A DNA stretch of 64,000 bases from an archaeon. Its GTDB lineage: Archaea; Hydrothermarchaeota; Hydrothermarchaeia; JALTZZ01. This document shows, in pieces, positions 14,042-49,647 of the stretch. The translations under genes were made by a program, and so were the position numbers. The DNA is taken from contig JALTZZ010000036.1 in assembly GCA_027051165.1 (NCBI GenBank), positions 5,050 through 69,049 of the forward strand. The letters are read 5' to 3'. The notes below the pieces were generated by a model. It was not told the DNA's origin and ran no database searches. It saw only the letters and a list, made by a program, of their open reading frames with translations. Position 1 is the first letter of the stretch, and each line of letters begins with the position of its first letter.

Positions 14042-14043
14042 TT

Positions 14044-14337: not shown

Positions 14338-14348
14338 TATATATTCAC

Positions 14349-17720: not shown

Positions 17721-17722
17721 TT

Positions 17723-21459: not shown

Positions 21460-22619
21460 CTCCCAGATAACCGATTAAGGAAGTCCTCAAGATAGCTATA
21501 TGATGGAATATTTACATCAGCTTTTATGTTAGGATTTCTTATATCAGAAATTCTTAACCTATTTTCTGGGAGAAATAGTGACTTAAATAGCTGTAATCCG
21601 ATAGCAAATTGATTATTATCTAATTTCCATATCTTTATGTGTAGAGGTGATGCTCGTCTGTCATGTCTTATACCTTTTACCATAGCTTTTGGTCTATCTG
21701 GAAGGGATTGAAACTGAAACTGATGAGGCAGACCAAAAATTGATCCTTGAGGTGTTGATGGAGAACCTTTAGTATAAATACTTTTTACAGAGTGATAATC
21801 TTTTGTAACCCAGTATGAAAAAGTTCCTCTTCGAGTATGGCGTGTATGTCTTGCAGATGGATTACCTCTATCTTCTCTATATTCCCTTATTTTCTCACCG
21901 ATATAATTGATTGCATCAATTGCAGAATTATGTGTGTTACTTAAAATTTTCATCCTCCAGTAATGAGGAGCAATAATTGAGTATTGAGGAAGAGAGGTGC
22001 TTCTCGATATACTCCCGTTCCATCCAAAAATTCTGAGACACTTTTTGAGATTATTTCTAATATATCTCTCTAGCTCGTCTAAACTTTTTGGATTTATAAA
22101 CTCCATTTCGTCTATTGTTATATCTTTTCTTATTCTTAAACTTCCAAATCCCTTTCTGCTTTTACTTCCTATATTCCCTAAATTTAATAGCAACCACAAA
22201 GCAGCTATTACCTTTTTCTTATCTTCATTAGATATTGAGCGTTTAAAGATGACATGTAATTTAAATTGGCTTCCTAAATCTATATACGGTCTGTCGGATG
22301 CACCATAAGAGAGATATTTTATTCCTCTTCCTCTAATATTCTGAAAAGTTGATATCTTTAAGCTTATTGGAAAAATTTTTAGAGATACTTTACTTTGATT
22401 TTTTGTACTACCCCAAATTTTTTCTTCCTCTTCTTTAACACTTTTTAAATTTAAATCTCCCGTAGAGAATTTAACACCCCCCATTATTGCCCTAAACCAC
22501 CACCTTAGCAATCCTCTCAAACTCGGAGTTCGTAAACCCTCATTTTCTATATATCTTTGATCTGCACCAGCAATAAATAAGGGAGTTATATTTTCAATTT
22601 CTAATGTTACCTCTTCCAT
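21444..22619 (-). CDS. cmr1: Type III-B RAMP Cmr1
   Basis: ITPLFIAGA, LRTPSLRGLLRWWFRA, GNIGSKSRKGFGS, IFGLP, RRASPL. ATG 22619. Confidence 0.92.
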   Translation of the reverse strand: MEEVTLEIENITPLFIAGADQRYIENEGLRTPSLRGLLRWWFRAIMGGVKFSTGDLNLKSVKEEEEKIWGSTKNQSKVSLKIFPISLKISTFQNIRGRGIKYLSYGASDRPYIDLGSQFKLHVIFKRSISNEDKKKVIAALWLLLNLGNIGSKSRKGFGSLRIRKDITIDEMEFINPKSLDELERYIRNNLKKCLRIFGWNGSISRSTSLPQYSIIAPHYWRMKILSNTHNSAIDAINYIGEKIREYREDRGNPSARHTRHTRRGTFSYWVTKDYHSVKSIYTKGSPSTPQGSIFGLPHQFQFQSLPDRPKAMVKGIRHDRRASPLHIKIWKLDNNQFAIGLQLFKSLFLPENRLRISDIRNPNIKADVNIPSYSYLEDFLNRLSGRWITI

Positions 22620-22748
22620 AGCACAATAACCTCCTATAAGTCTATACTTGCACATCAAAGTATAAAAATTTTACTTTTAAATTATTAAACAAATTCAAAT
22701 TAATTATAAATAAATGATAAAAATGGGTTTAAAATTAAAAATATAATA

Positions 22749-28334: not shown

Positions 28335-28787
28335 ATGGAGAAGAATAAGAAGGGATTTGAAATACTTCCAAATGTAGAGATAGATGTAAAGGGATCTCAT
28401 AGAGTTAAAAAGATTATTTTTGAATTTTTATCTAAAAAAGACAGAGCATCTTTAAATGAGATAATAGAGCTTGCTGAAAAAGAGGGATTTAGCATCAATC
28501 AAGTTAAGTATGCTTTGATATCAATGCTTTCGGATGGAACAATTTTCATGCCGGAGAGGAACCTCTTCTCGATATATAAAAAGGGTAGAGGGGTGTTCAG
28601 GATATACGTTGAGAGGGTTTACAGGGGCGGTGCCACCGTTTTAGTTAACGATAGATTCCGTGCAAGGGTTGAGGAAACAGATTCGTGCATAGTTCTTAAG
28701 AAGGGTGCAAGACTCGTCGTTAGGGGCTCGCTCGTTAGAGATCGTGTTATGAGGTTAAAAATTTACGATATAGTGGCGTATGAATAG
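28335..28787 (+). CDS. Hypothetical protein, putative wHTH + beta-barrel
   Basis: Helical N-half ending LSDGTIFMP (wHTH wing-like), beta-rich C-half; overlaps the xpb start. Confidence 0.5.
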   Translation: MEKNKKGFEILPNVEIDVKGSHRVKKIIFEFLSKKDRASLNEIIELAEKEGFSINQVKYALISMLSDGTIFMPERNLFSIYKKGRGVFRIYVERVYRGGATVLVNDRFRARVEETDSCIVLKKGARLVVRGSLVRDRVMRLKIYDIVAYE

Positions 28788-30111
28788 AGTTCTGCTCTTC
28801 TACGAGAAGGGCACTGTTGTCGTTAAAGGAAGCGTTGCGGTGCCACATGCAAGGTTCGATGATAGAATAAACGCTTTTAGAGCCCTTGCCATGTATTATA
28901 GGGATATCGTTGACTTTCTAAAAAGCTCAAGAATAAGCTTTGTTGACAAAGTTCTTAAAACAAAAAAGCCAAGAATAAAGCATCACGGATATATGCTTAG
29001 GGATTATCAAAAAGAATGCGTTGACAGGTGGTTTTTGAGCGGTAAAAGGGGTATAGTTGTTCTCCCCACCGGTGCGGGAAAAACTGTTGTTGCCCTTGAA
29101 ATTATATACAGGCTTGGGTGCTCAACGCTTGTTGTGGTTCCAACCATCGAGCTTCTTGAGCAGTGGTTTAGAGTGCTTAAAAAGGTGAGCGAAGATGTTG
29201 GCAGATATGGCGGCGGTTATAAGGAAATAAAGCCGATCACGGTAATAACATACGACTCCGCCTACTTAAACGTTCAGAATTTTGGGAACAGGTTTGAGCT
29301 CGTGATCTTTGATGAGGTGCACCACCTCCCGGCACCGAGCTATGCAACGATAGCTGAGATGCTTGCAAGTCCGTATAGGCTTGGACTTACCGCAACCCTT
29401 GAGAGGGAAGACGGCTTGCACGTTGAGCTCTATAGGCTTATTGGCGGTAAGGTTTATGAGGCGAAAATAGAGGAGCTTAAAGGAAGGTATCTGTCGGAGT
29501 TTGACATAGAGGTTGTGAGGGTAAGGCTCAGCAGGGAGGAAAAGAAGATATACAACGAGCTCAGGGAAAAATATTTAAAATTTTTAGAGAAGCACGATCT
29601 AAAAATGCCGGAGGATTTTGAAAAACTTGTGATGATGTCTGCGAGAAATAAAGAGGCAAGGGAAGCCTTAATTGCGAGAAATAAGGCAAGAAAAATTGCT
29701 TTCTGTGCGGAGAGGAAGATGGAGAAGCTTAAGGAGATTTTGAAGAAGCATAGAAATGACAGAATTATTATATTTACGGAGCATAACGATATAGTCTATG
29801 AAATATCGAGGAGGTTCCTCATACCCTTTATAACGCATAAAACTAATAAAAATGAAAGAAGGGAGGTTCTTGAAAAATTTAGGAGAGGAATATATAAAGC
29901 GATAGTTACATCCAAGGTTCTCGATGAAGGTATAGACGTCCCCGAGGCTAACATCGGTGTTATAATAAGCGGTAGCGGAAGCAGAAGAGAATTTAGGCAG
30001 AGATTAGGAAGGATATTGAGGAAAAAAGAAGGTAAGAGGGCGATACTATATGAGATAGTTTCAAGCGGAACGAGCGAAACGTTCACGCACAGAAAGAGGC
30101 ACAGAGATTAA
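28780..30111 (+). CDS. xpb: XPB/Rad25-family SF2 helicase
   Basis: PTGAGKT, DEVHH, GLTATLEREDG, LDEGIDVP, QRLGRILR; N-terminal ARFDDRINAFRA damage-recognition-like domain. Confidence 0.88.
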   Translation: MNRVLLFYEKGTVVVKGSVAVPHARFDDRINAFRALAMYYRDIVDFLKSSRISFVDKVLKTKKPRIKHHGYMLRDYQKECVDRWFLSGKRGIVVLPTGAGKTVVALEIIYRLGCSTLVVVPTIELLEQWFRVLKKVSEDVGRYGGGYKEIKPITVITYDSAYLNVQNFGNRFELVIFDEVHHLPAPSYATIAEMLASPYRLGLTATLEREDGLHVELYRLIGGKVYEAKIEELKGRYLSEFDIEVVRVRLSREEKKIYNELREKYLKFLEKHDLKMPEDFEKLVMMSARNKEAREALIARNKARKIAFCAERKMEKLKEILKKHRNDRIIIFTEHNDIVYEISRRFLIPFITHKTNKNERREVLEKFRRGIYKAIVTSKVLDEGIDVPEANIGVIISGSGSRREFRQRLGRILRKKEGKRAILYEIVSSGTSETFTHRKRHRD

Positions 30112-31133
30112 GATTTTGTTTCCCTTACCACTATGTTTTCGAGCCTGTTCATATCGTCTATGGAGCTGTTGAACTCTTCCGCAAGATTTTTCAGTCTTTC
30201 ATACTCTCTTCTCCTTACATCATCAACATAGCTCCAGTCAAAGCTCTTTCTAAACTCCCAGTATACCTTTTCAATCTCTTTCAGCAGTATTTTTCTGTAT
30301 CCATGCAAGCCGGCTATAAAGAAGCTGAAAGATCCAGCTCTCTTTTTCTTTATTATAAAGCTCAATCTTCCTTTATCGTTTAAATCTGCTAATGAATCGT
30401 ATAAAGCTGTTGCAAACATCTCTATTTTTGTCTTGGGATACATTTTTGCAATATTTTTATACGCCTCCAAACTCTCTTTTTCATGAAACTCTCCTATTTC
30501 GTGCCATATATAGCTCTCTATCTCCATGTCCACGATCCTCTCTACATCCTCTATGCTTGTGAGATCTGCATTGTAGTCCTTAAAAGCGAGCTTTAGGGCG
30601 TTTTCGAACATTAAGCTTTTTGCCTCCTCGACCTTGCTCCATATATAGAAGCTTGCAACCTCTCTCCTAACGTAGACCTCTCTGCTCTGAAGCATTGCTG
30701 TAGGGGCTAAGAGATCTCTTGCAAGCTCCCTCCCGCAGATGTAAACATCCAAGCCCTCTATGTTCTTTGTTTCTATTACCTCAGCCAAGAAGAACGACGG
30801 TTTGAGGGAGCCTAAGAAGCCGGCTCCGTATATATAGCCCTTTTCGAGATTCTCATTTATTTCCTTTACATCAAAGGGTTCGTATTCTTTTTTTCCTATT
30901 CTTATTTTTTCAAAGTTTTTGCTCATTAGAGAGTTCCAAAGCTTTTCTTTTTCTTTTATCCATGCAGAAACACTATCAAAATCAGCTTTTTCCCAAGGTT
31001 TAATTCCTTTTTCCCATTTATAAAGTTCAATAGCCCTTATTATAAAAGTGCAGAGAGATAAAGCCCCCCAGTTGTGAGCGTTTGCTATTTCGCAGTTTCT
31101 TTTAACAGCTTCAGCAACGTCTTTTATAGTCAT
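30108..31133 (-). CDS. Sfum_1244-like uncharacterised protein
   Basis: NCEIANA..SLC..YKWEKG..PW, PFDV..IN, YGAG..KPSFFLA, GRELARDL, HEIGE. Family recalled from motif pattern. Confidence 0.62.
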   Translation of the reverse strand: MTIKDVAEAVKRNCEIANAHNWGALSLCTFIIRAIELYKWEKGIKPWEKADFDSVSAWIKEKEKLWNSLMSKNFEKIRIGKKEYEPFDVKEINENLEKGYIYGAGFLGSLKPSFFLAEVIETKNIEGLDVYICGRELARDLLAPTAMLQSREVYVRREVASFYIWSKVEEAKSLMFENALKLAFKDYNADLTSIEDVERIVDMEIESYIWHEIGEFHEKESLEAYKNIAKMYPKTKIEMFATALYDSLADLNDKGRLSFIIKKKRAGSFSFFIAGLHGYRKILLKEIEKVYWEFRKSFDWSYVDDVRRREYERLKNLAEEFNSSIDDMNRLENIVVRETKS

Positions 31134-31460
31134 GATATTATAGTTATGTGACTTACGGTTTAATAAATTTATGCTCAAATTACTTTCATGGCTATAAAGT
31201 TGAGGGTTTAATTCTGTTCTTTAAATCAAAATCACGCTTGATGGTGAGCTCGAAACCTTTATTTAGCCTTGTGCTAACGGAAACCCTGCACTTATGCAGC
31301 TCTACGACACGCTTGACCTACTGTTCTTTATTGCAAAATTATTGCGAGAATGTAGCAGAGCTCTTTCTAAGAGAAAAAATTGTGTAAAGATGAATTAACT
31401 TTTTGTTTATAAAAATTAACAGATAATAATTTAAATAATAATATTAAAATATAGGTTATT

Positions 31461-32411
31461 ATGAAAAAATATTTTGTGGTAATGCTTCTAATTTCGATAA
31501 GTCTTTCATGCCTGAGAGGGGGTGCAGAAAGTTCTGAACAACTGCCGCATCAGAAAGCTTTTTTCAGCATAAATAATAAAGGGAAATATATTTTTGTAGG
31601 AACAGACAGCGGCATTGAAGTTTATAAATTTCAAAACGGAACATTGATTCGTATTTGCTCTAAGGAGTTAAATGCAACCGTGCACGATATAGAAATTTTT
31701 AGTGACTATGCTGTATTGTCCCTTGGTAGCAGCGGCATTGCAATAGGGAATATAAGCATGTTTATTGAAAATCCATATAACTACAGCTTCAAAATAATAA
31801 ATATAAATAACAACATACTTGACGCGGAGATTTATAAAAATTACATACTTGCTGGCGGGTTTATAGGAAATAAGATATATGTTTTTGATTTTGGTGGAAG
31901 AAACATTCTAAACATAACAATACCAGAGTATGGGTATGTGAGGAGGATAAAATCTATAGACGATGAAATATATGTGGCTGATTTTACTGGCGGTGTTTAT
32001 AAGCTGAATATATTTACAGACTACGGATTTTATTTTATGATAACAAAGCATTTTGAAACAAGCGGTGTAGCATATGATGTCGAAAAATTTGATGATAGAA
32101 GAATTATTGTTGCATGTTCATTAAAAGGTTTGGATGTTGTTAACAGCGAAAACGGGTCTCTGGAAAAGAATATTCCGGTAAACGGGTATGCAATACTAAT
32201 AAAGAGATACGGAGATAAGTTCTACATAAGCTTGGCTACTGGAGGACTGCTTGTAATAGATAGGGACATGTTTAAAATCTATAAAACAAAAGGAAATATA
32301 CTTGACTTTGTAGTTTTAGAAAATAAAACAGCTATAATTGCTGATTATTACCACCTTTCACTTCTTGATTTAACAACGGGGGAGGTGAGGAGTTATGAAT
32401 GTAAGGTGTAA
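31461..32411 (+). CDS. Exported (probable lipoprotein) beta-propeller, LVIVD-like repeats
   Basis: Signal peptide with Cys (ISLSCLRG); repeated units IFVGTDSGIEVY, IYVADFTGGVYKL, FYISLATGGLLVID, IIADYYHLSLLD. Confidence 0.65.
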   Translation: MKKYFVVMLLISISLSCLRGGAESSEQLPHQKAFFSINNKGKYIFVGTDSGIEVYKFQNGTLIRICSKELNATVHDIEIFSDYAVLSLGSSGIAIGNISMFIENPYNYSFKIININNNILDAEIYKNYILAGGFIGNKIYVFDFGGRNILNITIPEYGYVRRIKSIDDEIYVADFTGGVYKLNIFTDYGFYFMITKHFETSGVAYDVEKFDDRRIIVACSLKGLDVVNSENGSLEKNIPVNGYAILIKRYGDKFYISLATGGLLVIDRDMFKIYKTKGNILDFVVLENKTAIIADYYHLSLLDLTTGEVRSYECKV

Positions 32412-33828
32412 AATAATAATCATAATAGCATTGGTTGTTTATATCACGATTTTTGGAATATTTTACTATATCGCTAAATCGCAGGAGAAGCAGCTTACAA
32501 ACGTTTTAAAAGAGCAGGCAAAGGGAATTGCACAGTCAATTAAACTTGTAAGATACTGGGCTGCGGAAAATAGGGAACTTATAGTTCCAGTTCCAGCTAA
32601 GCTGACGTATGAACTTGCAGAGCTTTCCAACAAAAAATACAACTACAAAATTGGACTTAAATCGAATAAAATAAGGAATTATAAAAATGCTTTGAGTTCT
32701 GAGTTCGACTACAGAAGCTACTATGCATTTATGAATGGAAGAGATGAATACTACATGTTTTCGGATGGAAAATTTATGTATGCGGTTCCGTTGAAGGTAG
32801 AGGAGCCATGTTTATACTGTCATATAGATCAGGGGTATCGTGCAGGCGATCTACGAGGCATTCTCGTGGTTGAGCTTCCTATTGATGAAATAGAAAGGCT
32901 TAAACAGGAAAATAAGAGAAAAATCTTCCTTTTAGCTCTTTTCTCAGCTCTAATAGTTTCCGCATTTCTATATATACTTCTAAGCAGATTTGTTATTGAC
33001 CCGGTGTATAAGCTGAAAGATGTTGCGGAGGAAGTTATGAGGGGAAATTATGATGTTAGAATTAAAAAGAAAAGCGAAGATGAGTTTGGCATGGTATTTG
33101 AAGCCTTTGATAAAATGGTTAGAGAAATAAAGAAAAGAGAAGATGCTATAGTTAGAGCGGAGAAGCTTGCAACGATAGGGAAGATAACATCGGGAATCTC
33201 CCACCAGATAAACAATCCGCTTGCTAACATAATGCTCTACGCCCAGCTTCACAAAATGGAATGCAAGGATAAAAATACAATAAAGGTTCTTGACATAATT
33301 GAAAAAGAAGCAGAAAGAATAGCGAAAGTTGTTAGAAGCCTTTTGGAATATGCTAAAGAGAGGAAAATCAAAAAGAAAATAGTAAAGCTGAGCGACGTAA
33401 TAAACAGTGCATTGGAAATTTTAAGTCCGCTGATGAAGAATATTACTCTCGTAAAAGATTTGAACGACAAAATATATGTGAATGCGGACTTTATAAAGCT
33501 CAGAGAAGCTATTTTAAACATTGTAATTAACGCAATAGAAGCTGTTTCTAATAAAAAAGATGCAAAAATCGTTATAAAGACCTATGTTGATGCATCAAAC
33601 AGCTCGCAGAGGGCAGTGATAGAAGTATCGGACAACGGAATTGGAATTCCGGAGAGCCACTTATCAAAGATTTTTGATCCTTTATTCTCAACGAAAAAAG
33701 ATGGAACTGGTTTAGGATTGGCTATAACTTACGAAATAATAAAGGATCATGGGGGAAATATTAAGGTTGAAAGCAAGGTTGGTGCGGGAACGAAATTTAT
33801 AATAGAACTTCCGATGGTGGTATTATGA
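32395..33828 (+). CDS. Membrane sensor histidine kinase with extracytoplasmic heme-c (DUF3365-like) sensor, HAMP, HisKA and HATPase_c
   Basis: Two TM helices flank PLKVEEPCLYCH..GYRAGDLRG; HAMP KSEDEFGMVFEAF; H-box ISHQINNPL; N, G1 (DNGIGI), F and G2 (GTGLGL) boxes. Confidence 0.9.
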   Translation: MNVRCKIIIIIALVVYITIFGIFYYIAKSQEKQLTNVLKEQAKGIAQSIKLVRYWAAENRELIVPVPAKLTYELAELSNKKYNYKIGLKSNKIRNYKNALSSEFDYRSYYAFMNGRDEYYMFSDGKFMYAVPLKVEEPCLYCHIDQGYRAGDLRGILVVELPIDEIERLKQENKRKIFLLALFSALIVSAFLYILLSRFVIDPVYKLKDVAEEVMRGNYDVRIKKKSEDEFGMVFEAFDKMVREIKKREDAIVRAEKLATIGKITSGISHQINNPLANIMLYAQLHKMECKDKNTIKVLDIIEKEAERIAKVVRSLLEYAKERKIKKKIVKLSDVINSALEILSPLMKNITLVKDLNDKIYVNADFIKLREAILNIVINAIEAVSNKKDAKIVIKTYVDASNSSQRAVIEVSDNGIGIPESHLSKIFDPLFSTKKDGTGLGLAITYEIIKDHGGNIKVESKVGAGTKFIIELPMVVL

Positions 33829-34451
33829 CCAAGAAGATTTTGGTTGTGGAGGACGATCAGAATCTTAGGAATGGGTTGGAGATGCTGCTTAAAACAAGAG
33901 GTTATGAAGTAAAGACCGCAGAAAATGGTGCAAAGGCTTTGGATATGCTAAGGAAAGAGGATTTCGATTTAATAATTGCAGACTTAATAATGCCAGAGCT
34001 TGACGGCATGGAGCTATTAAGAATTGCAAGGAAGATGTGTCCGCATACAAGTTTCATCGTAATAACGGCTTATGGAACTGTGGAGAGTGCAGTTGAAGCT
34101 ATGAAGCTTGGTGCATGTGACTATATTCTTAAACCGTTTAAAATAGACGAGGTCTATTCGAAGGTTCTAAAAGCACTTGAGGAGGTAAAAATAAGATCCG
34201 AGAGAAGAGTTATTGACGAGTGTTCTTTTAAGTGTCTTTCAAATTCCATAAGAAGGTCTATTATAAGATTTTTATCGAAGAACGAGAAGGCACGCTTCGT
34301 GGATATAATGAACGCGGTTAACATTAAAGATTCAGCGAAGCTGAGTTTTCATTTAAAATTTTTAAAGAAGCACGGTGTTATAGATAAAGATGAAACCAAA
34401 TTTTATTATTTAACATCAAGAGGAAAAATGTTAGCAGAGCTTTTATCATAG
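33825..34451 (+). CDS. Response regulator, receiver + winged-HTH output domain
   Basis: ILVVEDD, DLIIADLIMP (phospho-Asp), ITAYG, KPF; C-terminal LSNSIRRSIIRFL..SAKLSFHLKFLKKHGVI..YYLTSRG. Confidence 0.88.
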   Translation: MTKKILVVEDDQNLRNGLEMLLKTRGYEVKTAENGAKALDMLRKEDFDLIIADLIMPELDGMELLRIARKMCPHTSFIVITAYGTVESAVEAMKLGACDYILKPFKIDEVYSKVLKALEEVKIRSERRVIDECSFKCLSNSIRRSIIRFLSKNEKARFVDIMNAVNIKDSAKLSFHLKFLKKHGVIDKDETKFYYLTSRGKMLAELLS

Positions 34452-34495
34452 TCTCTTTATTTTTATGCTTTTATTCGATATTTAATAAAAAGTTA

Positions 34496-34567
34496 TTTAC
34501 AAACTTGTAAATGCGGATTTCAAAAAAGAATATAAATAACTTTTATTAAAATTTAAAGTGGGGATGT
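34496..34567 (+). promoter_or_regulatory. Palindromic operator + BRE/TATA + RBS upstream of the octaheme nitrite reductase
   Basis: TTTACAA-AC-TTGTAAA (34496-34511), AAAAAAG followed by AATATAAATA, then AGTGGGGATG; paralogous to 37263-37333. Confidence 0.6.
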
Positions 34568-34570: not shown

Positions 34571-36451
34571 ATGAGATACGGTGTGGTTGTTGTTTCTATG
34601 CTCTTGGCTATGGTAGTGATGCTTGGAACAGTAAGTGCAGCAGTTAAGGAACAGTGTAAAACATGTCATAGCGATATGTATGGCTTCTTGCAGGAGGGTA
34701 AGCACAAGACTCATGATTGCAGTCTATGCCATGGAGATTCTACAAAGCAGCTGCAGGATCACATGTCAAATCCAAAGAAAACAAAGCCTTCAATAAAACC
34801 GCTGGAAGAAGGACCTAAATTCTGTGGGCAGTGTCATGAAAAATACTATGAGCAGTACAAAGATATAAACTGGAAGTCTATTGCAAAAATTGAGAAGGCT
34901 AGCCCAGTAGGTAGAGCACCAGCATTTGATCTATTACTCCACAGATACGGATTCGTGTTCGAGCATGCTGAGCCAAGAAGCCATGTATTCATGCTACTCG
35001 ATCATGTGATCGTTGACAGGGGTTACAAAGGAAGATTTAGACTTAAGGACTACAGTCTATTTGTTCCGCCAGAAGGATGGGACGGTGACATAACACCGCT
35101 AATTGTTGATACAAAGAAGAACAATCCTTACAGTGGTAGAGCTGATGTGAAGGGTCTGAAACCATGGGTCGCTGGAGCTGGGAGCACTATATGTCTGCAG
35201 TGTAAGACAACTGATATGGTAGTTGGCTGGGAAACGATAAGCAAAGGTGGAAACAAGACCGGTTATGCAAAGTTCATGAGGTGGGGTAATGCAAAAACCG
35301 CGGAGCTTATAGCAGCGGGTAAGATAAAGAGATCTCTAAACTGCGTCCACTGCCACGATCCACACATGACAAAGATGAGAGTTATAAGAGATGCACTTAT
35401 AGAAGCGGTAAAGAAGAAAGGTCCATTCCCATACGATAAAGAAAAGAATGAAAAAGCTAAGAAGCTTTACAAGATAGTGGCATTCCCAAGCGTAAAGAAC
35501 AACTACAGAGAAATTATTGTATGGGATGCCGATGCTAAGGATCCAAAGCTAAACTGGCTAACGTGTGCGCAGTGCCACGTAGAGTATGAGTGCAACCCAG
35601 TTACAGATGTGAAGACGGATAAGAAAGTAAAGCATGAGGAAGATCCAAGGACAAACATATTCCCATGGGTAAACGTCAACGAAGTCTACGACTACTACCT
35701 CAAGGAAGTCGGTATCTACACATTTAAGCATGGTATCACAAAAGCTAAGCTTATAAAAGCCCAGCATCCAGAGGTTGAGGTATGGTGGGAAAGCAAGCAC
35801 GAAAAGAACAACGTTGACTGTATAGACTGCCACATGCCAGAGATCGATGGCATAGCGTTCCACTCGCCAAGAAGCCCACAAGATATAGGTGTTGATAAAA
35901 CATGTTTGAAGTGCCACAAAGAGTGGGATGTGGAGCAAGCTAACTACGTAATTGAGTCAATACAGGAATACAGTAAGGGTAAGATGAGAGACGCTGAGTT
36001 CCACCTATCAAGACTTGTTGACAGGATAAAGCTTGCCGAGCAGATAGGAGTTGATCCAGCGAAGATAGAAGAAGCGAGAGAATTGCATGCAAGAGCACAT
36101 ATACTATGGGAGTGGTGGACCGCTGAAAACAGCGACGGATTCCACGATCCAGATGAAGCTTGGCTAACGCTTGGCGAGGCTTCAAGACTCGCAGAGAAAG
36201 GCTGGAAGATGCTTGACGAAGAGATAAAGAAAAAGATGGAGGAGCTGCAGGCTAAAATAGAAAAAGCACCAGCTGAGAAGGTTCCAAAGGCTGAGGAAGT
36301 CGTTCCAAAAGTTGAGAAGCCGGCTCCAGAAAAGCCAGCAGAGGTAAAGCCACCAGCAGAAGAGAAGAAAGGCATCTGCGGTCCAACAGCTATTATAGCA
36401 CTTGCAATGCTACCTCTGGCTGGATACCTTGCTCTAAAGAGAAGAAGATAA
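34571..36451 (+). CDS. nrfA: Octaheme cytochrome c nitrite reductase (NrfA/TvNiR-type) with CGP-CTERM anchor
   Basis: Signal peptide; CKTCH, CSLCH, CGQCH, CLQCK (Lys-ligated active-site heme), CVHCH, CAQCH, CIDCH, CLKCH; LIKAQHPEVE; AENSDGFH; Pro/Glu/Lys linker then GICGPTAIIALAMLPLAGYLALKRRR. Confidence 0.9.
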   Translation: MRYGVVVVSMLLAMVVMLGTVSAAVKEQCKTCHSDMYGFLQEGKHKTHDCSLCHGDSTKQLQDHMSNPKKTKPSIKPLEEGPKFCGQCHEKYYEQYKDINWKSIAKIEKASPVGRAPAFDLLLHRYGFVFEHAEPRSHVFMLLDHVIVDRGYKGRFRLKDYSLFVPPEGWDGDITPLIVDTKKNNPYSGRADVKGLKPWVAGAGSTICLQCKTTDMVVGWETISKGGNKTGYAKFMRWGNAKTAELIAAGKIKRSLNCVHCHDPHMTKMRVIRDALIEAVKKKGPFPYDKEKNEKAKKLYKIVAFPSVKNNYREIIVWDADAKDPKLNWLTCAQCHVEYECNPVTDVKTDKKVKHEEDPRTNIFPWVNVNEVYDYYLKEVGIYTFKHGITKAKLIKAQHPEVEVWWESKHEKNNVDCIDCHMPEIDGIAFHSPRSPQDIGVDKTCLKCHKEWDVEQANYVIESIQEYSKGKMRDAEFHLSRLVDRIKLAEQIGVDPAKIEEARELHARAHILWEWWTAENSDGFHDPDEAWLTLGEASRLAEKGWKMLDEEIKKKMEELQAKIEKAPAEKVPKAEEVVPKVEKPAPEKPAEVKPPAEEKKGICGPTAIIALAMLPLAGYLALKRRR

Positions 36452-36482: not shown

Positions 36483-37226
36483 ATGAGTTTTAAACTTAAA
36501 CTAATAATAATCCTAATATCCTTTTCTATACTGCTGGTAGCATGCAATCTTTTCGAGAAAAATTCTAAGAAGAATTTTTATGAGGGATTCTACGAAGGAT
36601 ACATGCAGGGGTTATCTCAGGGTTATAAAGAGGGTTATGAACTTTCGTGCACAGAAAAAATATTTCCGGAGATCGTGAGAAAAGAAGGTGTAATAGTGAG
36701 AAAATTTGACGTTGGCGACTACATAGTAAATGTTAGAATAAGCACGAGAAAATACTTCTACTACAAATTTAAAGAAGAGGAAAATCTTTCCGAATACATT
36801 ACCCCAAATGAAAGCGAGATAAAGGAGCTTGCCTTAATTCTAAGAAAGCTCTATCCAGATGATGAGGATTTCGCAAGGATTTGCTTAAAAATAGTCCAGC
36901 AGATAAAGTATGAGGATGATATAACGGCTTTTAATGTGAAATTTCCGGTAGAAACGCTTGCCGAGGGAAGCGGAGACTGCGAGGACTTGGCAATACTCCT
37001 TGCCTCGTTGCTTAGAGCTGGTGGACTAAACGCAAGCCTCGTAGTTTTCGATGCCCATGTAGGGGCTGCTGTAAACCTTAAAAATTTAAGAAAAATACCA
37101 AAAGATGGAGCTTTCTTTCTTGAATACAATGGAAAAAAATTTTACTACTGTGAGCCACAGGAAAATTTCGATATCGGTGAAATGCCCAAAAAATATATAA
37201 ACAGCACTGCCAAGCTTTTGTTTTAA
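36483..37226 (+). CDS. Lipoprotein with transglutaminase-like cysteine protease domain
   Basis: LLVACN lipobox-like; GSGDCEDLAILLASLL, AHVGAAV, YYCEP (Cys-His-acid triad order). Confidence 0.68.
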   Translation: MSFKLKLIIILISFSILLVACNLFEKNSKKNFYEGFYEGYMQGLSQGYKEGYELSCTEKIFPEIVRKEGVIVRKFDVGDYIVNVRISTRKYFYYKFKEEENLSEYITPNESEIKELALILRKLYPDDEDFARICLKIVQQIKYEDDITAFNVKFPVETLAEGSGDCEDLAILLASLLRAGGLNASLVVFDAHVGAAVNLKNLRKIPKDGAFFLEYNGKKFYYCEPQENFDIGEMPKKYINSTAKLLF

Positions 37227-37262
37227 AAATTTCGGTAGCAAAGCTTTTTATGTTAACTATTG

Positions 37263-37333
37263 TTTACAAATTGTTAATTTTTATTTTAAAAAAGCATATA
37301 TATTACTTATTTATAAAAAATAGAGTGGGGATG
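37263..37333 (+). promoter_or_regulatory. Second copy of the upstream module, in front of the Reeler-nap operon
   Basis: TTTACAAATTGTTAA, AAAAAAG followed by CATATAT, AGTGGGGATG, with spacing within 1-2 nt of the 34496 copy. Confidence 0.55.
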
Positions 37334-37337: not shown

Positions 37338-37898
37338 ATGAAGTTCAAAGTATTGGTGTTCTATGTTTTATTAGCCGTGTGTGTTGCGATGGGTAGTGCC
37401 TTCGCTCTGAGCAACGGTGCACCAGACTTAAAGTGTGCAAAGTGTCATAAGAACGTTGTTGGCACCGCTGATATAAAGATTTCTGGACTTCCAGAAAAAT
37501 ACAAGCCGGGCAAAGAGTATACAATTGAAATAGAGATTTTGAGTAGTGTAAAGAGCACGGGCTTTTCTCAGGGAGGTTTTGCCATAGAAGCCAGTGCTGG
37601 AGAGCTGAAAGTTGTTGATGAAAAAAATACACTAAAAAGTGGAAAATACGTTACCCATACTACTGAAGGTGCAGGAAAAAGAAAGTGGAAAGTTGTCTGG
37701 CAAGCTCCAGATAAGCCCGTTGAAGTTACGATAAGCGTTTCAGCCATAGCCTCTAACGGTGATGCATCTCCAGCAAACGATGCTATGGGAATGAAAACAG
37801 TAAAGATAAAGCCAGAGCTTCCATCAAAAACTCTGGGCTATCTTCTGATAATAATAGGAATAGGATTGCTTGTTTTTGCGATATTATATAAGGGGTGA
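37338..37898 (+). CDS. Membrane-anchored monoheme cytochrome c with Reeler-like (choice-of-anchor V-like) domain
   Basis: Signal peptide, CAKCH, GLPEKYKPGKEYTI, GGFAIEASAG, YVTHT, WKVVWQAP, ASNGD, C-terminal TM helix. Confidence 0.72.
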   Translation: MKFKVLVFYVLLAVCVAMGSAFALSNGAPDLKCAKCHKNVVGTADIKISGLPEKYKPGKEYTIEIEILSSVKSTGFSQGGFAIEASAGELKVVDEKNTLKSGKYVTHTTEGAGKRKWKVVWQAPDKPVEVTISVSAIASNGDASPANDAMGMKTVKIKPELPSKTLGYLLIIIGIGLLVFAILYKG

Positions 37899-37903: not shown

Positions 37904-40900
37904 ATGGGTTTGACGAGAAGAGATTTTATTAGAGCAAGTGCCTTAGCTGCAGCTGCTGCGTGCATCGGTGCTGGTGGTTATTTAGCAACCAGAAAAGAGG
38001 AGATTGCAAAAGTGCTACCGATAAGAACGAAGGACTTTCCAGTTGGACAGTGCAGATTCTGTGCGGTTGGATGCACAACCGTAGCAGAGGCTGAGGTTGA
38101 TGAGTCTGGAAAGATAGTCAAGGTCATTGCAATAAAGGGAGACCCTACAAGTCCAGTTAATAGGGGTGTTCTCTGCACGAAAGGATTTTATTTGAACAAA
38201 GCCTTAGCCTATGAAAAAAGACCAAAGAAGCCACTTATAAGAAAGGAATGGATAAATCCAGCAACAGGAAAACCTGATTTGAAAAATTCACCGAGAGTAA
38301 CTAAAGGAGTAACAACAAAAGACCCAGAGGGATTAAAGCCGAGCGAAGTTGACCTTCAGGAGAACTTCGTTGAGGTTGACTGGGAAACAATACTTGAGTT
38401 TATAGCGGATGCAATGGAAATGTGCATAAATGAATACGGAATCTTCTCGATAGGCTACTACGGAAGCGGTCAGCTTGGAACCGAGGAAACCTATGTTATG
38501 AACAAGGCTTTAAAAGGTGGCTTGCCCAACAACCACATAGAAGGTCAGCCAAGGATGTGCATGGCAAGTGCCGTTGTTGCCTATCTTCAAACGTTTGGCA
38601 GAGACGAGCCTTATGGATGCTTTGACGATATAGATGTCCCAGACCCGGATTATGGAGTTCATGCAGATACGTTCTTTATAATGGGAAACAATACCGCAGA
38701 AGCGCATCCAGTTCTTTTCAACAGAATTGCAACTCTAAAACATAAAAATCCAGAAAAAATAAAAATAATACTTGCAGATCCGAGAAAAACGAGAAGCGGA
38801 ACAGTAGCTGATTTATGGCTGCCGTTCATGTCGGGCTCCAATCTAAGCCTGCTGAACGCAATGCTGCACTACATAGTCCTTGAGGCGAACAATATAAAGC
38901 GTGTTGTTGATGTAGATAATGCAAAAGTTGAGCTCAACGACGGCAGAGTAGTTCATCTAAAGGATATAAACTGGAAGTATGTTGATATAAAATTCATAAA
39001 AAGACACTGTAACTTTGGAATAGTAACTCAGGTTCAGAAGGTATGGGTTTTAAACAAGTATGGCGGAACGAGAGGAGAAGTTTGGGATCCAGCATATAAA
39101 TTAGGAACAAAAGCACAGTTCTTCCCGGATCCGAGAAAAGCGGATAAATATAAATCAGAAGAAGAAATAGAAAAGGACTGGTGGAAAGGATTCGCAATGT
39201 ATATAAAGTTCTTAGAAGACTATAAGCCGGAGAAAGTTGCTGATATTGTATTCAGGGGAGAAACTCCGCTGAAGTATGACAGGGCAAAGGGTGAATGGGT
39301 GGAAATAGATCAGGCAGAGGCTATCAGGCTTGCGGCTAAGTGGTTCGCAGAGGGATATACAGTTAGCCTATGGTGCATGGGCGTAAACCAAAATGTTCAG
39401 GGTGTCTGGATAAACAGGGCTATACATGCTCTGCATCTAATAACTGGAAAAGCTGTAAAGCCGGGTAGACATGCGTTTAGCCTAACTGGTCAGCCAAACG
39501 CGTGCGGCGGTATAAGAGCTCCCGGAGCTCTCTGCCATGCACTGCCCTATGGAAGGGTAGTCTTCGATGGTGTAAACAGAAAAGAGGTTGAGGACATCTG
39601 GAAAAAGAACCTTGCAAACTATCTAAGAAAGAAGGGATACAGCGAAGCTGAGATTCAGAAAGAAATTGAAAAGATAAAGATACACGGAAAACCGGGACCG
39701 CATACAATAGAGATGTTCAGAAGATATGGTGCAGGGCAGATAAAGATAATGTTCATTTCTACCGTGAACCCCGGGCAGAGCCTTCCTTATGCGTATGTAT
39801 ATAGAAAGGCAATGGCAGGTGCAGAGAAGAGTAAACCATGGCCTCTTACAATAACTCTCGAAGCATTCCCGAGCACAACTACGCTTGTTAGCGACATTGT
39901 TCTACCAGCTGCAAGCTGGTATGAGAAATCGTTTACATATGGAAATACGGAAAGAAGATATCAGTATATAAGGAAGATCATGGATCCACCATCCAAGGAA
40001 ATGCTTCCGGATTCAGTGATATTTGCAATGATATGGAGAAAAATGGAAGAAAGAGGAATAATACCAAAAGGCTTTATATCAATGTTCTGGCCTGAGGAAT
40101 ATGGAGAAGACTGGATTAAAAAGACGATAGAAAACTGCCACAAGCCTGAGTGGATAGATAAGTTCACAGAGAACCTGTGGAACGAGCTTAGAGAGTTGAG
40201 CAATGAAACACCATACGATCTCAGCGGAATAACAAGAAAGAGACTCAAAGAAAAGGTATCTGGATACAGAATGCCGATGCCAGAAGAATACGACACGGAT
40301 CCTGATGTAAGGGCAAGATATGACAAATATCAGTCAAGAATCACCTATGCATATCCATACGATCCGCATATAGAGAAGCATACAAAAAGGGCTCTTGAAA
40401 ACTTGAAGAAGTGGGCACCGCTATATGCAAGATGGGTTGAGAAAAATATAGAAGAAACTAAGAACGATTTAGAATATAAGAGAAAAGAAAAGCTTCCAGA
40501 TAACTACTGGATAAGCTTCTATGCAGCATGCAAGCCAGTATATAAACGTAAACAGCTTCCAGATGGAAGCAAGGTTCCTATAATAGACTGCAGAGCTATA
40601 ATATGGTCAAATCCGCATTGGGCTACATATTACGATGAGAAGGAGCAGAAATTCAAGATATTTAAGAAAGTGAAGATAATAAAGAAGAAGTTCAATCCCG
40701 AAAAGGCATACAAAGGTCTCTCAGCAGGACCGCTTCCATTTGACAAAATTGAGGAGTTTGAAGCAGATGTTATAGGAGATCCAGAGAGAGACCTAAATGC
40801 AATGTTTACCCTTGTTCTAAGTCCGCCAGAAGTGCCTGGAGTTAAAATTGCCTACAGAAAGCCAGATGGAAGCGAGATCGTAATAATGGATGCGAGAGAC

Positions 40901-41311
40901 TATCCATACGGCGTATGCACGGGCAGAGTAATAGAGCACTGGCACACAGCAACGATGACTAATAGGGTGCCGGAGATAAACAGAGTCCTACCAGAAGCTT
41001 ATGTCGAAATAAACGTGAAACTTGCAGAAAAGCTTGGAATAAAGGATGGGGATCCAGTTATACTCGAATCACCGAGAGCAAAAATAGAGCTTAAAGCTAA
41101 GGTTCTCGATCCAAAGAAGGCATTAGGTGGTCCAAGATACGATTACCTCTTTGTTCCGTGGTTCGATGAGAAGAAGCTTATAGGATTCCTACTAAGGGAT
41201 AACTTCGATCCATTCAGCTTCCAAGCGGACTACAAGATGGCAGCAGTTAAGCTATACAAAGGAACCCTTCAGAGAAAACAGGCTATAGCAAAGCCCTTAA
41301 CGGTAGCTTAA
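37904..41311 (+). CDS. napA: Periplasmic-type nitrate reductase catalytic subunit (NapA-like molybdoenzyme, 1135 aa)
   Basis: Tat signal TRRDF; CRFCAVGC...C [4Fe-4S]; PRMCMASAV (Mo-ligating Cys); NTAEAHP; SLTGQPNACG; CTGRVIEHWHT. Confidence 0.88.
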   Translation: MGLTRRDFIRASALAAAAACIGAGGYLATRKEEIAKVLPIRTKDFPVGQCRFCAVGCTTVAEAEVDESGKIVKVIAIKGDPTSPVNRGVLCTKGFYLNKALAYEKRPKKPLIRKEWINPATGKPDLKNSPRVTKGVTTKDPEGLKPSEVDLQENFVEVDWETILEFIADAMEMCINEYGIFSIGYYGSGQLGTEETYVMNKALKGGLPNNHIEGQPRMCMASAVVAYLQTFGRDEPYGCFDDIDVPDPDYGVHADTFFIMGNNTAEAHPVLFNRIATLKHKNPEKIKIILADPRKTRSGTVADLWLPFMSGSNLSLLNAMLHYIVLEANNIKRVVDVDNAKVELNDGRVVHLKDINWKYVDIKFIKRHCNFGIVTQVQKVWVLNKYGGTRGEVWDPAYKLGTKAQFFPDPRKADKYKSEEEIEKDWWKGFAMYIKFLEDYKPEKVADIVFRGETPLKYDRAKGEWVEIDQAEAIRLAAKWFAEGYTVSLWCMGVNQNVQGVWINRAIHALHLITGKAVKPGRHAFSLTGQPNACGGIRAPGALCHALPYGRVVFDGVNRKEVEDIWKKNLANYLRKKGYSEAEIQKEIEKIKIHGKPGPHTIEMFRRYGAGQIKIMFISTVNPGQSLPYAYVYRKAMAGAEKSKPWPLTITLEAFPSTTTLVSDIVLPAASWYEKSFTYGNTERRYQYIRKIMDPPSKEMLPDSVIFAMIWRKMEERGIIPKGFISMFWPEEYGEDWIKKTIENCHKPEWIDKFTENLWNELRELSNETPYDLSGITRKRLKEKVSGYRMPMPEEYDTDPDVRARYDKYQSRITYAYPYDPHIEKHTKRALENLKKWAPLYARWVEKNIEETKNDLEYKRKEKLPDNYWISFYAACKPVYKRKQLPDGSKVPIIDCRAIIWSNPHWATYYDEKEQKFKIFKKVKIIKKKFNPEKAYKGLSAGPLPFDKIEEFEADVIGDPERDLNAMFTLVLSPPEVPGVKIAYRKPDGSEIVIMDARDYPYGVCTGRVIEHWHTATMTNRVPEINRVLPEAYVEINVKLAEKLGIKDGDPVILESPRAKIELKAKVLDPKKALGGPRYDYLFVPWFDEKKLIGFLLRDNFDPFSFQADYKMAAVKLYKGTLQRKQAIAKPLTVA

Positions 41312-41340
41312 CTCTATTTTTATTTTTTTAAGGTGTAGGA

Positions 41341-42087
41341 ATGAAAAAAGGAATAAAAAGAAGAGATTTTCTAAAATTTTATATTCTTTCTCCGCTTTTA
41401 TTTGGATTTAACACTAAAAAAGATGAAGAGCTTGAAGATGTTGTAAGACCACCTGGTGCAAGCAGAGGATTCTCAAGAAAGTGCGTAAGGTGCTCCGCAT
41501 GTGTCAGCACATGCAGGAATGTCGGCAGATACGCCATAACGCTTGCAGGGCTTTCAAAAGGCATAAGGAACCTTGGAACGCCAGTTGTAGAGAACATGAG
41601 GGAATACCCATGCGATCTCTGCATGGAGTGCACAAAAATTTGTCCAACAGGGGCTTTAAAAGAGATACCAAAGGAAAAGGTGAAGATGGGCGTTGCGGTT
41701 ATAGATATAGACCTGTGCTTGGGGTGGAACTCCGATGTCTGCCTCTCGTGTAGCAAGGTTTGCCCATTTGCAAACGATGTTTTTGAATTTAGAAGCTCAG
41801 AATGGGGAAATCAGCCATATATAAAGCCAGATAAATGTGTAGGCTGCGGTTTGTGTGTTAAAGCGTGTATTGTGAGGAAAACAGCCGTAGTTGTATATCC
41901 GCCCAAAAAATACAGAGAAATAGAGAGGGAGTATCTGATGTATCTTGACTATATTGAAAGCCTTCCCAATCTAAACAGATACAAGGTTGTATACGAGGAC
42001 AACCTGCCGAGAATACTTGAAATAGGTATAGAAAGGGAAAGGGAGGAAAGGGTTCTGAGAGAGCTAAAAAAGAGGAAGGTGAAGTAA
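41341..42087 (+). CDS. napG: NapG/MauM ferredoxin-type protein
   Basis: RRDF, VRPPGA, CVRCSACVSTC, CDLCMECTKICPTGAL, GVAVIDIDLC, CVGCGLC. Confidence 0.9.
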   Translation: MKKGIKRRDFLKFYILSPLLFGFNTKKDEELEDVVRPPGASRGFSRKCVRCSACVSTCRNVGRYAITLAGLSKGIRNLGTPVVENMREYPCDLCMECTKICPTGALKEIPKEKVKMGVAVIDIDLCLGWNSDVCLSCSKVCPFANDVFEFRSSEWGNQPYIKPDKCVGCGLCVKACIVRKTAVVVYPPKKYREIEREYLMYLDYIESLPNLNRYKVVYEDNLPRILEIGIEREREERVLRELKKRKVK

Positions 42088-42830
42088 TGATCAGCAGAGC
42101 AAGAAGGCTTGTGCTTGCCTTAATATTAGCTCTATTTATCCTTCAGTTCTTTGGTATAGAAATTTTGAAGGGAAACCTTGTAAGCTCGATATTTTTAAAT
42201 AAAATCTATCTTTTTGATGTTTTTTCTGGTATAGAAACAATTTTATCTTCTAAACGATTGGAGATTAATATAATCCTCGGAATACTCACGGTAACCTTCA
42301 TATACGTTATATTCGGAAGAGCGTTCTGTGGATGGATATGTCCGCTTGATGCGGTTTTTTCATATATAAAAGGAAGGGAGAAAAATAGAAAAACCTTAAA
42401 TCCAGCCTATCCAGCGGTATTTTTTCTCACAGCTTCGCTACTGCTCTCACAACCGATATTTGCATCATATATCTCACCAGTATCGAACTTCTTTAGAATA
42501 ATATACTCCCCATTTCTTGGAAGCATTTCTCTGCTCATTTTCTCTGGAGCAATGATCCTTCCGATAATTCTTATGGAAATTCTTGAAAAAAGATTTTGGT
42601 GCAAAAATATTTGTCCAATAGGATTTATCTATGGAAAATTTAATAAAATAAGCTTAATAGGAATAAAAATAGATAAAAATGCATGCATAGACTGCAAAGC
42701 CTGCGTGCAAGCATGCCCTATGGATGTTGAGATAAAAAAATACAGCACCAGAATAAGATCATCGAACTGCATTCTCTGCGGGATATGTGTCGAAAAATGC
42801 GAGAAAAATGCACTAAAATTTGGGGGGTGA
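42087..42830 (+). CDS. napH: NapH membrane polyferredoxin (quinol dehydrogenase)
   Basis: GRAFCGWICP, RFWCKNICPIG, CIDCKACVQACP, CILCGICVEKC; several TM helices. Confidence 0.9.
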   Translation: MISRARRLVLALILALFILQFFGIEILKGNLVSSIFLNKIYLFDVFSGIETILSSKRLEINIILGILTVTFIYVIFGRAFCGWICPLDAVFSYIKGREKNRKTLNPAYPAVFFLTASLLLSQPIFASYISPVSNFFRIIYSPFLGSISLLIFSGAMILPIILMEILEKRFWCKNICPIGFIYGKFNKISLIGIKIDKNACIDCKACVQACPMDVEIKKYSTRIRSSNCILCGICVEKCEKNALKFGG

Positions 42831-45175: not shown

Positions 45176-45182
45176 GCGGTGT

Positions 45183-49599: not shown

Positions 49600-49647
49600 T
49601 AGCATAGCAGAAATTAAAAATAAACGTTAATGTTTAACAGTTTCTTG

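Follow-up and report, generated by a model that had tools for sequence, protein, structure and literature searches.

How an uncultured archaeon might decide when to make its nitrate and nitrite reductases is the question raised by a stretch of Hydrothermarchaeota DNA, 64,000 nucleotides (nt) long and hereafter called the window (contig JALTZZ010000036.1 of assembly GCA_027051165.1, positions 5,050 to 69,049 of the forward strand), in which two genes, one for a sensor histidine kinase, the other for a response regulator, lie upstream of genes resembling nrfA and napAGH. An earlier note, made by a model from the sequence alone, had described the pair as a two-gene system at 32395-34451; both open reading frames (ORFs) were recovered at exactly these coordinates, but a third gene of the same operon, encoding a beta-propeller protein at 31461-32411, had been missed. 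We lean, with modest confidence, towards the view that the resulting three-gene module couples an extracellular signal related to nitrogen oxides (N-oxides), most likely nitric oxide (NO), to transcription of nrfA and napAGH. The features of the module, with residues numbered in amino acids (aa) and transmembrane segments abbreviated TM, are as follows:

31461-32411, + strand: LVIVD-like beta-propeller protein of 316 aa, secreted or anchored, with a hydrophobic segment at aa 4-22; first gene of the three-gene module
32395-33828, + strand: sensor histidine kinase of 477 aa, with TM1, sCache_heme ectodomain, TM2, HAMP, HisKA and HATPase_c (Pfam, NCBIfam)
32488-32880, + strand: sCache_heme (DUF3365/Tll0287-like) ectodomain of the kinase, aa 32-162 (PF11845, E=1.3e-11)
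32809-32823, + strand: conserved CLYCH motif (C139, C142, H143), where covalent attachment of haem c is predicted, with the His as proximal ligand
33202-33204, + strand: H270 of the kinase, predicted autophosphorylation site in the H-box ISHQINNPL (HisKA match at aa 263-322)
33825-34451, + strand: response regulator of 208 aa, with a receiver (aa 5-114), a long alpha-5 linker and an ArsR-type winged helix
33981-33983, + strand: D53 of the regulator, predicted phospho-acceptor residue of the receiver
34224-34439, + strand: winged helix of the regulator, aa 134-205 (PF24038 DUF7347, HTH_5)

The propeller gene extends 17 nt into the kinase gene, and the ATG of the regulator gene has a 4-nt overlap with the kinase stop; such overlaps fit translational coupling.

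The sensor kinase and its Cache ectodomain

Two hydrophobic segments in the kinase, at aa 1-29 and 174-205, enclose an ectodomain of ~145 aa that is predicted, on hydropathy only, to be extracytoplasmic, with the HAMP domain following TM2 in the cytoplasm. The ectodomain matches Pfam PF11845 (Tll0287-like) with 45.5 bits, the cut-off being 24.1, over profile positions 2-144 of 144. It holds the only CxxCH of the whole kinase (C139-L-Y-C142-H143), and within it H143 is the sole histidine and there is no cysteine beyond C139 and C142. Because the ectodomain matches this family and C139, C142 and H143 are invariant across relatives (alignments A1, A2 and A6), a chance occurrence of the motif was ruled out.

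The relationship becomes visible chiefly through family profiles: the sensor region alone gave no matches as a query in a word-indexed homology search, and the single sensor sequence gave none against the PDB by phmmer. Searched exhaustively with HMMER, however, 1.84 billion representative proteins yielded sensor relatives in 1,393 representative clusters at E<=1e-3, and a profile of 24 sensor domains, which was needed to reach this structure, found Tll0287 (5B82) in the PDB at E=4e-10 and GSU0582 (3B47) weakly, with the CxxCH aligned. The AlphaFold2 (AF2) model of the ectodomain, of moderate confidence (predicted local distance difference test, pLDDT, of 70, which limits the weight of the comparison), likewise has 5B82 as its top match in Foldseek (E=3.6e-5, TM-score 0.64), followed by GSU0935 (3B42), GSU0582 (3B47) and ordinary Cache sensor domains. 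By hidden Markov model, sequence profile and modelled fold alike, the ectodomain is a member of the c-haem Cache family; the extracytoplasmic CLYCH sensor put forward in the earlier note thus stands as a c-haem-type domain between transmembrane segments, although it does not form an unclassified domain but belongs to PF11845/sCache_heme.

This family was recently renamed sCache_heme, its CXXCH being 99% conserved, and was split into stand-alone, Cys/His-ligated proteins of redox type and a signalling class that is fused to HAMP, kinase, MCP or GGDEF and is without the distal Cys (Deshpande et al. 2026 preprint, 10.64898/2026.02.01.703092). The one member of the signalling class tested, from Pseudomonas azotoformans, has a slow NO off-rate like that of H-NOX/NosP and forms no stable O2 complex (10.64898/2026.02.01.703092), biochemistry that lends support to the earlier suggestion of NO as a plausible signal. 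Where Tll0287 has its distal Cys68, the profile alignment places an invariant proline of the kinase, Pro67, so that the sixth haem position appears to have no obvious protein ligand, and the kinase can be placed in the signalling class because it is fused to HAMP and kinase domains and has no distal Cys. We infer from the sequence that haem c is covalently attached at C139/C142 with H143 as its proximal ligand. Like the Cache_heme-HAMP NO receptor of P. azotoformans, the sensor would be an extracytoplasmic single Cache domain into which a CxxCH helix is inserted, lacking a distal Cys and having TM segments on either side and a cytoplasmic HAMP domain; unlike that receptor, it has an archaeal host and its HAMP domain feeds an intrinsic HisKA/HATPase rather than a separate Ser/Thr kinase. 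The transmitter boxes of the kinase are complete (H270, N375, DNGIG413 and GTGLGL437; HisKA E=9e-13 and HATPase_c E=3e-25 in Pfam), and its core resembles AtoS and ZraS in NCBIfam.

The regulator and the nrfA and nap promoters

The receiver of the regulator is likewise complete (D10, D11, D53, T81 and K103; PF00072 E=3e-30) and is nearest to the NtrC class, with NtrC1 (1ZY2; ~40% identity, root-mean-square deviation 1.2 Å) its closest structure in Foldseek and AtoC and NtrC its best NCBIfam models. In the AF2 model of the regulator (pLDDT 91.7) a (beta-alpha)5 receiver is followed by a long alpha-5 that leads into a winged helix, with the modelled output topology alpha-alpha-alpha-alpha-beta-beta-alpha (helices 132-138, 141-152, 158-165, 170-182 and 198-207; strands 186-188 and 194-196). 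Receiver domains dominate the Foldseek matches of the full model, which returned nothing on the output domain. A profile of the output domain built from 23 relatives, all 23 of which match DUF7347, finds the ArsR/SmtB structures 1Y0U of A. fulgidus, CadC, PH1061 and BigR; the window protein itself matches PF24038 DUF7347 with 40.9 bits (cut-off 27.6) and HTH_5 ArsR with 27.2 bits (cut-off 22). These last matches bear out the winged helix-turn-helix (wHTH) reported earlier, with the correction that it is ArsR-type and not OmpR-type, the latter being ruled out by the lack of a Trans_reg_C match.

Neither Trans_reg_C, nor a GerE/LuxR-type HTH, nor a sigma-54 AAA+ domain with a Fis-type HTH was found in the regulator with Pfam and NCBIfam, which puts it outside every major bacterial class. 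The metal-binding CXC of ArsR metal sensors is also absent, the position of the CVC of CadC being occupied by F-T/V-D/E in the regulator family, and the alignment contains no conserved Cys in the winged-helix core; without such a metal-sensing Cys/His site, control is expected from the receiver domain. As the earlier note had said, DNA-binding response regulators are rare in archaea: the census of archaeal systems lists only arrangements of the Bat, LtrR and FilR1 types for receiver proteins with an HTH (Galperin 2018, PMC5847659). Those proteins share an HTH output with the window regulator but differ from it in domain order and family, since here an N-terminal NtrC-like receiver (REC) is joined to a C-terminal ArsR-type winged helix. 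The REC-ArsR (DUF7347) architecture is absent from the 2018 archaeal census (PMC5847659), and no mention of DUF7347 was found in the searchable literature.

Which genes such a regulator might serve is suggested by what lies downstream, where T-rich tracts 3' of the regulator gene and of a transglutaminase-like gene make it appear that nrfA and the nap genes have promoters of their own. The elements and genes, including putative TFB-recognition elements (BRE) and TATA boxes, are:

34496-34511, either strand: candidate operator 1, perfect inverted repeat TTTACAA-AC-TTGTAAA, the sole zero-mismatch match in the window
34522-34538, + strand: BRE/TATA-like element of the nrfA promoter, AAAAAAGAATATAAATA, read from the sequence and of putative function
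34571-36451, + strand: NrfA-like octahaem nitrite reductase of 626 aa (PF02335, E=4e-48); predicted target gene
36483-37226, + strand: transglutaminase-core-like membrane protein (PF01841), kept after nrfA in loci L156 and L167
37263-37277, either strand: candidate operator 2, inverted repeat TTTACAA-A-TTGTTAA, identical in L156
37289-37305, + strand: BRE/TATA-like element of the nap promoter, AAAAAGCATATATATTA, likewise of putative function
37338-37898, + strand: monohaem (CAKCH33) choice-of-anchor-V/Reeler-like membrane-anchored protein with TM segments (NF041895, E=4.6e-27); first gene of the nap unit
37904-41311, + strand: NapA-like molybdoenzyme of 1135 aa, exported by twin-arginine translocation (TAT) (NCBIfam NapA, E=2e-128)
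41341-42087, + strand: NapG-like protein (NCBIfam NapG, E=2e-30)
42087-42830, + strand: NapH-like protein (Fer4_5, NapH-type)

The two candidate operators are placed alike: the centre of the first lies 67 nt 5' of the nrfA ATG and that of the second 68 nt 5' of the ATG at 37338, and each repeat is 9 nt upstream of an A-run/TATA, AAAAAAG-N-ATATA, that resembles BRE/TATA. Their common form, TTTACA-N3/4-TGTWAA, occurs in the 64 kb only at 34496 and 37263 (expected, 0.08) and in L156 is confined to the orthologous pair of promoters. Aligning the nrfA promoter with the nap promoter gives a score of 79, where shuffled sequences give 29.7 +/- 5.1 and at most 54, and on the + strand neither AAAAAG-N-ATATA nor AGTGGGGATG is present anywhere but in these two promoters. 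Both candidate operators fall within the intervals 34490-34530 and 37250-37300 that had been proposed earlier for binding assays. By analogy, a site just upstream of BRE/TATA is one that we infer to be typical for archaeal activators, and napAGH (37904-42830) is the predicted target operon. The TTTACA/TGTWAA motif is absent from the module's own promoter (31340-31460), so that autoregulation, if any, would use another site; two AATTAAC repeats ~21 nt apart are found there and are conserved in L156.

The NrfA-like protein has seven CxxCH motifs in addition to the catalytic CLQCK208, corresponding to the five NrfA haems and three extra N-terminal ones, and its score falls below the NCBIfam equivalog cut-off (99 vs 595), which marks it as a divergent, extended form. 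Its N-terminus is a fused trihaem (c3/NrfH-like) segment, and its C-terminus consists of a linker rich in Ala, Pro, Glu and Lys, a hydrophobic tail (TM 602-622) and then RRR, resembling an archaeal PGF-CTERM-type anchor; if this anchor is real, the enzyme would be an octahaem nitrite reductase tethered at the surface. The NapA-like protein is ~300 aa longer than NapA of the Pyrohabitans type described below (807-826 aa), the extra length sitting within and after the molybdopterin domain, and the long form is also present in L156.

Conservation, relatives and host genome

A full-length search with the kinase recovers an orthologue group of ~11 clusters at 41-84% identity, one of them labelled Candidatus Pyrohabitans, a genus of Hydrothermarchaeota; beyond the group, matches drop from E-99 to E-50 and are confined to the transmitter. 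Among 185,579 species representatives, the archaeal members of the sensor subfamily come only from metagenome-assembled genomes (MAGs) that are labelled Hydrothermarchaeota or are unclassified and from vents, among them JdFR-16 and JdFR-17, and most carry two copies. The complete module of propeller, kinase and regulator is conserved in ~8 Hydrothermarchaeota genomes, usually as two paralogues, with a propeller homologue of 300-340 aa and with LVIVD matches directly 5' of the kinase gene and overlapping it (L156-L162, L163-L175). The secreted propeller is probably a partner of the ectodomain, either as an accessory protein or as a co-sensor; its LVIVD matches are only faint to moderate, and no ligand-binding family was detected in it.

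In every sufficiently long Hydrothermarchaeota locus examined, napA or nrfA stands beside the module: napA in L157, L158, L159, L160, L162, L164, L165, L166 and L168, and nrfA in L156, L167, L169, L170 and L172. Searches with tblastn divide the paralogues in the same way, the copy 1 kinase (44-46% identical to that of the window) always lying directly upstream of napA, and the copy 2 kinase (40-42%) preceding a thioredoxin-fold gene and an nrfA that has 70-73% identity to that of the window. The first five of the napA-linked loci have the order propeller, kinase, regulator, NapA, (NapG, NapH), NapD and multihaem cytochrome, and two of these five nap clusters also contain a COX1/NnrS-like gene, of a family linked to NO handling, which we count in favour of NO as the signal. 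In the window, a single module precedes both nrfA and napAGH. A neighbour-joining tree, drawn without support values, makes the archaeal kinases monophyletic against Deferribacterota outgroups and has the window and L156 branch before the split between copies 1 and 2. As read from these sequences, the window lineage has one module before a merged nrfA-nap cluster and the Pyrohabitans-type lineage one module per operon. Among the Pyrohabitans-type promoters, only that of L172 has a one-mismatch look-alike of the operator motif at a similar position; A/T-rich look-alikes (TGTAAA, TATAAA) at a similar distance in Pyrohabitans-type promoters were too ambiguous to count. NapADGH and c-type cytochromes of Hydrothermarchaeota have been described without mention of a two-component system (Carr et al. 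2019, PMC6775978).

Some of these loci hold further genes of note. Between regulator and nrfA, L169, L170 and L172 have a thioredoxin/glutaredoxin-fold CxxC gene (~5970-6620) that is absent in the window and may support cytochrome maturation as a thiol-disulfide factor. Upstream of the module in L157, L158, L159, L160 and L162, on the opposite strand and facing away, is a second, divergent REC-DUF7347 regulator with no adjacent kinase, which adjoins TatA and the molybdenum-cofactor genes MoeA, MobB, MoaE and FmdE-like; in L162 there is also a third copy, next to genes for a Nar-like molybdoenzyme and a NarJ-like chaperone.

The nearest sensors outside the archaea are ~30-33% identical and carry Deferribacterales and Flexistipes labels. 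In all three bacterial contexts examined, a regulator of OmpR type (REC + Trans_reg_C) is encoded directly 5' of the kinase, which stands beside NrfA and ResB/CcsA in L182, beside a c7-type cytochrome with NapA-D-G-H in L183, and beside a pair of NrfH-like and multihaem cytochromes in L184. The sensor and its presumed targets are thus associated in both domains of life, with a different output module in each. The placement of the pair directly upstream of nrfA and nap that the earlier note had described, with the downstream genes it had named, holds for the window, and a position beside nap or nrf genes recurs in Hydrothermarchaeota and Deferribacterota, which makes the regulatory link considerably stronger than neighbourhood in a single genome would. 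The Deferribacterota systems share the kinase architecture and the nitrate-ammonification neighbours of the window system but differ in their OmpR/PhoB regulator upstream of the kinase, their H-box (HEIRTPL, not HQINNPL) and their lack of a propeller gene.

Relatives of the regulator lead elsewhere. Full-length ones, with 41-50% identity across both domains of the protein, come almost only from Methanoperedens and related MAGs, with one from a MAG labelled Deltaproteobacteria, and each has directly upstream a kinase that matches the window kinase in the transmitter half only. Two Methanoperedens loci, L005 and L009, resemble the window in having the same regulator family (44-50%), a related kinase core (38-41%), a secreted accessory gene in first place and a position upstream of a TAT-exported respiratory molybdoenzyme; they differ in their haem-free sCache_3 + PAS sensor and PhnD-like binding protein, and their target is an operon for a Psr/Ttr-type TAT molybdoenzyme, an FeS protein, NrfD and a chaperone. 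Other Methanoperedens copies of the regulator have unrelated neighbours, for example Fic or an ABC permease.

In Escherichia coli, the NarX-NarL and NarQ-NarP systems pair a periplasm-facing kinase with a DNA-binding regulator that controls the nap and nrf operons. The window system follows the same logic, but NarX/Q senses through a four-helix bundle that has no haem and to which nitrate or nitrite binds directly, and the regulators carry a NarL/FixJ-type HTH; no NarX/NarL-type input or output family was matched in the window pair with Pfam and NCBIfam. H-NOX/HnoK and NosP/NahK share with the window system a haem-based sensor that controls a histidine kinase, and their NO off-rates are comparable to that of the sCache_heme signalling class; H-NOX and NosP are separate, cytoplasmic haem b proteins, whereas the window sensor is predicted to be c-type, covalent, extracytoplasmic and within the kinase polypeptide.

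That the window is archaeal, as had been supposed, follows from markers in it: genes for TiaS, XPB with a DRD domain, CofE and ThyX, and an HgcC RNA. Those with coordinates are:

28780-30111: XPB with DRD domain, archaeal marker
45171-45300, - strand: HgcC RNA (97 bits)
49630-50931: TiaS, archaeal marker

In the 185,579 species representatives, TiaS is best matched by a vent MAG (57%) and a Hydrothermarchaeota MAG (54%), and the locus is present in hydrothermal-vent metagenome runs. Bacterial contamination or a chimeric contig was ruled out by archaeal markers on both flanks and the same gene order in L001 and L156; since L001 is an independent contig and L156 an 84%-identical relative, the arrangement is no assembly artefact. 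Elsewhere in the window, the reverse strand at 12809-22658 encodes a type III-B CRISPR-Cas effector of Cmr type (RAMP proteins, Cmr5, Cmr3 and Cas10/Cmr2) along with a HEPN ribonuclease resembling Csm6 (12809-14041); no CRISPR array was detected across the window by Tandem Repeats Finder (score >=80). Facing away from the signalling module is a gene for a two-domain DUF6866 protein of unassigned function (30108-31178, - strand; E=1e-51 and 3e-33). An ORF at 45268-45768 (+ strand), with only the C-terminal part of a phage integrase and a zinc ribbon, partly overlaps the HgcC RNA, and the two may be what is left of an integrated element or its attachment site. At 48889-49416 (+ strand) is a coiled-coil protein with 33-nt (11-aa) tandem repeats at 49045-49335 (5.5 copies, 80% match), followed by a 21-nt repeat.

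A proposed mechanism and its alternatives

In the mechanism that we propose, the cell's cytochrome c maturation system would bond haem c to the two cysteines C139 and C142, H143 would be its proximal ligand, and the distal site, open or occupied by water or hydroxide, would bind NO arising from nitrite turnover, or else the state of the haem would change. The signal would be relayed through TM2 and HAMP to alter autophosphorylation of H270, from which phosphate would move to the regulator's D53. Once phosphorylated, the receiver would dimerise and place two ArsR-type winged helices on TTTACA-N3/4-TGTWAA, and the regulator, bound just upstream of BRE/TATA, would most likely help to recruit TBP/TFB, activating nrfA and nap. 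In origin, the system may be a bacterial haem sensor, with its nearest relatives in Deferribacterota, that was joined to an NtrB/NtrC-like kinase-receiver core with an archaeal ArsR-type output. OmpR- and sigma-54-type outputs depend on features of bacterial RNA polymerase that are missing in archaea; an ArsR-type winged helix could work with the archaeal transcription machinery.

Several points weigh against this proposal. Haem attachment, ligand, phosphotransfer and DNA binding are all deduced from sequence, and NO binding has been demonstrated for a single Pseudomonas protein that is a distant relative at best. Residues 36-56 of the ectodomain model lie below pLDDT 50. Cytochrome c maturation genes were not among the window proteins scanned with Pfam (12.8-57 kb), so that the capacity for maturation is suggested only by the neighbouring c-type cytochromes. 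The motif statistics are optimistic because the motif was defined after the sites had been seen, its exact form is absent from Pyrohabitans-type promoters, and the lack of support values in the tree bears on the placement of the window before the paralogue split. A search for RNA runs holding the locus found only DNA metagenome runs. Finally, the sign of regulation is uncertain, as proteins of the ArsR family are usually repressors.

It could be that the haem senses redox state or electron flux rather than NO, the oxidation state of the c-haem, set by the electron chain, oxygen or the ambient potential, controlling the kinase such that nap and nrf are switched on once other acceptors are exhausted. 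The family members Tll0287 and the P. putida protein do behave as redox proteins, the signalling-class protein autoxidises quickly, the fold relatives GSU0582 and GSU0935, which are haem-c sensors of Geobacter, have been discussed as sensors of redox or small ligands, and redox gradients in vent habitats are steep. Yet redox-type members belong to the stand-alone Cys/His class, whereas the window kinase has Pro at that position and a HAMP-kinase fusion, and the tight linkage to N-oxide reductases in archaea and bacteria points to a cue related to N-oxides; we regard a redox sensor as unlikely, if a serious contender. Ferric haems can bind nitrite, and one might also imagine a three-component system in which nitrate, nitrite or another solute is the ligand, bound by the propeller alone or together with the haem domain, with the haem in a structural or modulatory role. 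That the propeller gene is the first, overlapping gene in every archaeal module speaks for such a role, and the Methanoperedens modules, which start with a periplasmic binding-protein gene, suggest that accessory binding proteins recur. It is hard, however, to reconcile with the bacterial relatives beside nap/nrf, which have no adjacent propeller gene, with the invariant CxxCH, which argues that the haem is central, or with the failure to find a ligand-binding family in the propeller, and we consider it quite improbable.

A different kind of objection concerns the output: the module might be functional but act on itself or on distant genes, the reductase genes not being its direct targets and the repeat being bound by another factor, or it might repress them. 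The post hoc motif, which is not conserved in distant orthologues, the repressor habit typical of the ArsR family, and the Methanoperedens copies beside Fic or an ABC permease would all be in keeping with this. Against it, the adjacency to napA or nrfA survives two paralogues, changes in gene order and the divide between archaea and bacteria, and a site upstream of BRE/TATA would, by analogy with Ptr2 and TrmBL1, be an activator position rather than one of the usual repressor occlusion; of all the explanations discussed, this seems to us to have the least in its favour. On balance we continue to prefer an N-oxide-related signal, with NO foremost, acting on nrfA and napAGH.

Each part of the system is of a known kind, namely an sCache_heme sensor, a HisKA kinase, a receiver and an ArsR-type winged helix, and control of nap and nrf by sensor kinases is already familiar from NarXL and NarQP. 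What is new or unusual is, for one, that sCache_heme kinases form a monophyletic and duplicated clade within an archaeal phylum, the family having been reported as almost absent from archaea, with Methanohalophilus levihalophilus the only archaeal RefSeq genome having such a kinase (10.64898/2026.02.01.703092). The REC-ArsR (DUF7347) regulator architecture, outside the archaeal census and the searchable literature, is another such feature, as are the conserved three-gene module with its secreted propeller and the consistent Nap/Nrf context of the sensor subfamily in both domains; a nap/nrf genomic context is absent from both sCache_heme papers (10.64898/2026.02.01.703092; 10.64898/2026.05.25.727664).

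It is tempting to go further, if only tentatively and with some doubt, and to see in REC-ArsR (DUF7347) proteins an unrecognised archaeal class of regulators for operons of anaerobic respiratory molybdoenzymes and cytochromes, with the propeller an obligatory component and the single copy in the window co-ordinating both steps of ammonification. If this were true, the class would be an archaeal functional counterpart of the NarL/OmpR-type respiratory regulators onto which varied sensors have been grafted, Hydrothermarchaeota having received a bacterial c-haem Cache domain and Methanoperedens sCache_3 together with binding proteins; propeller and pair would form a three-component extracellular sensor of NO or N-oxides, and Pyrohabitans-type genomes would divide between two paralogues the task that one copy performs here.

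For few archaeal two-component systems are the input, the output and the target all known, and this locus offers testable candidates for all three. It would represent a bacterial extracytoplasmic sensor re-plugged into archaeal transcription, its OmpR-type partner swapped for an ArsR-type winged helix, and it would give sCache_heme kinases their first function from genomic context, in both domains: the control of nitrate ammonification by Nap and Nrf. In this way it suggests how uncultured Hydrothermarchaeota of vents and ocean crust may decide on nitrate respiration.

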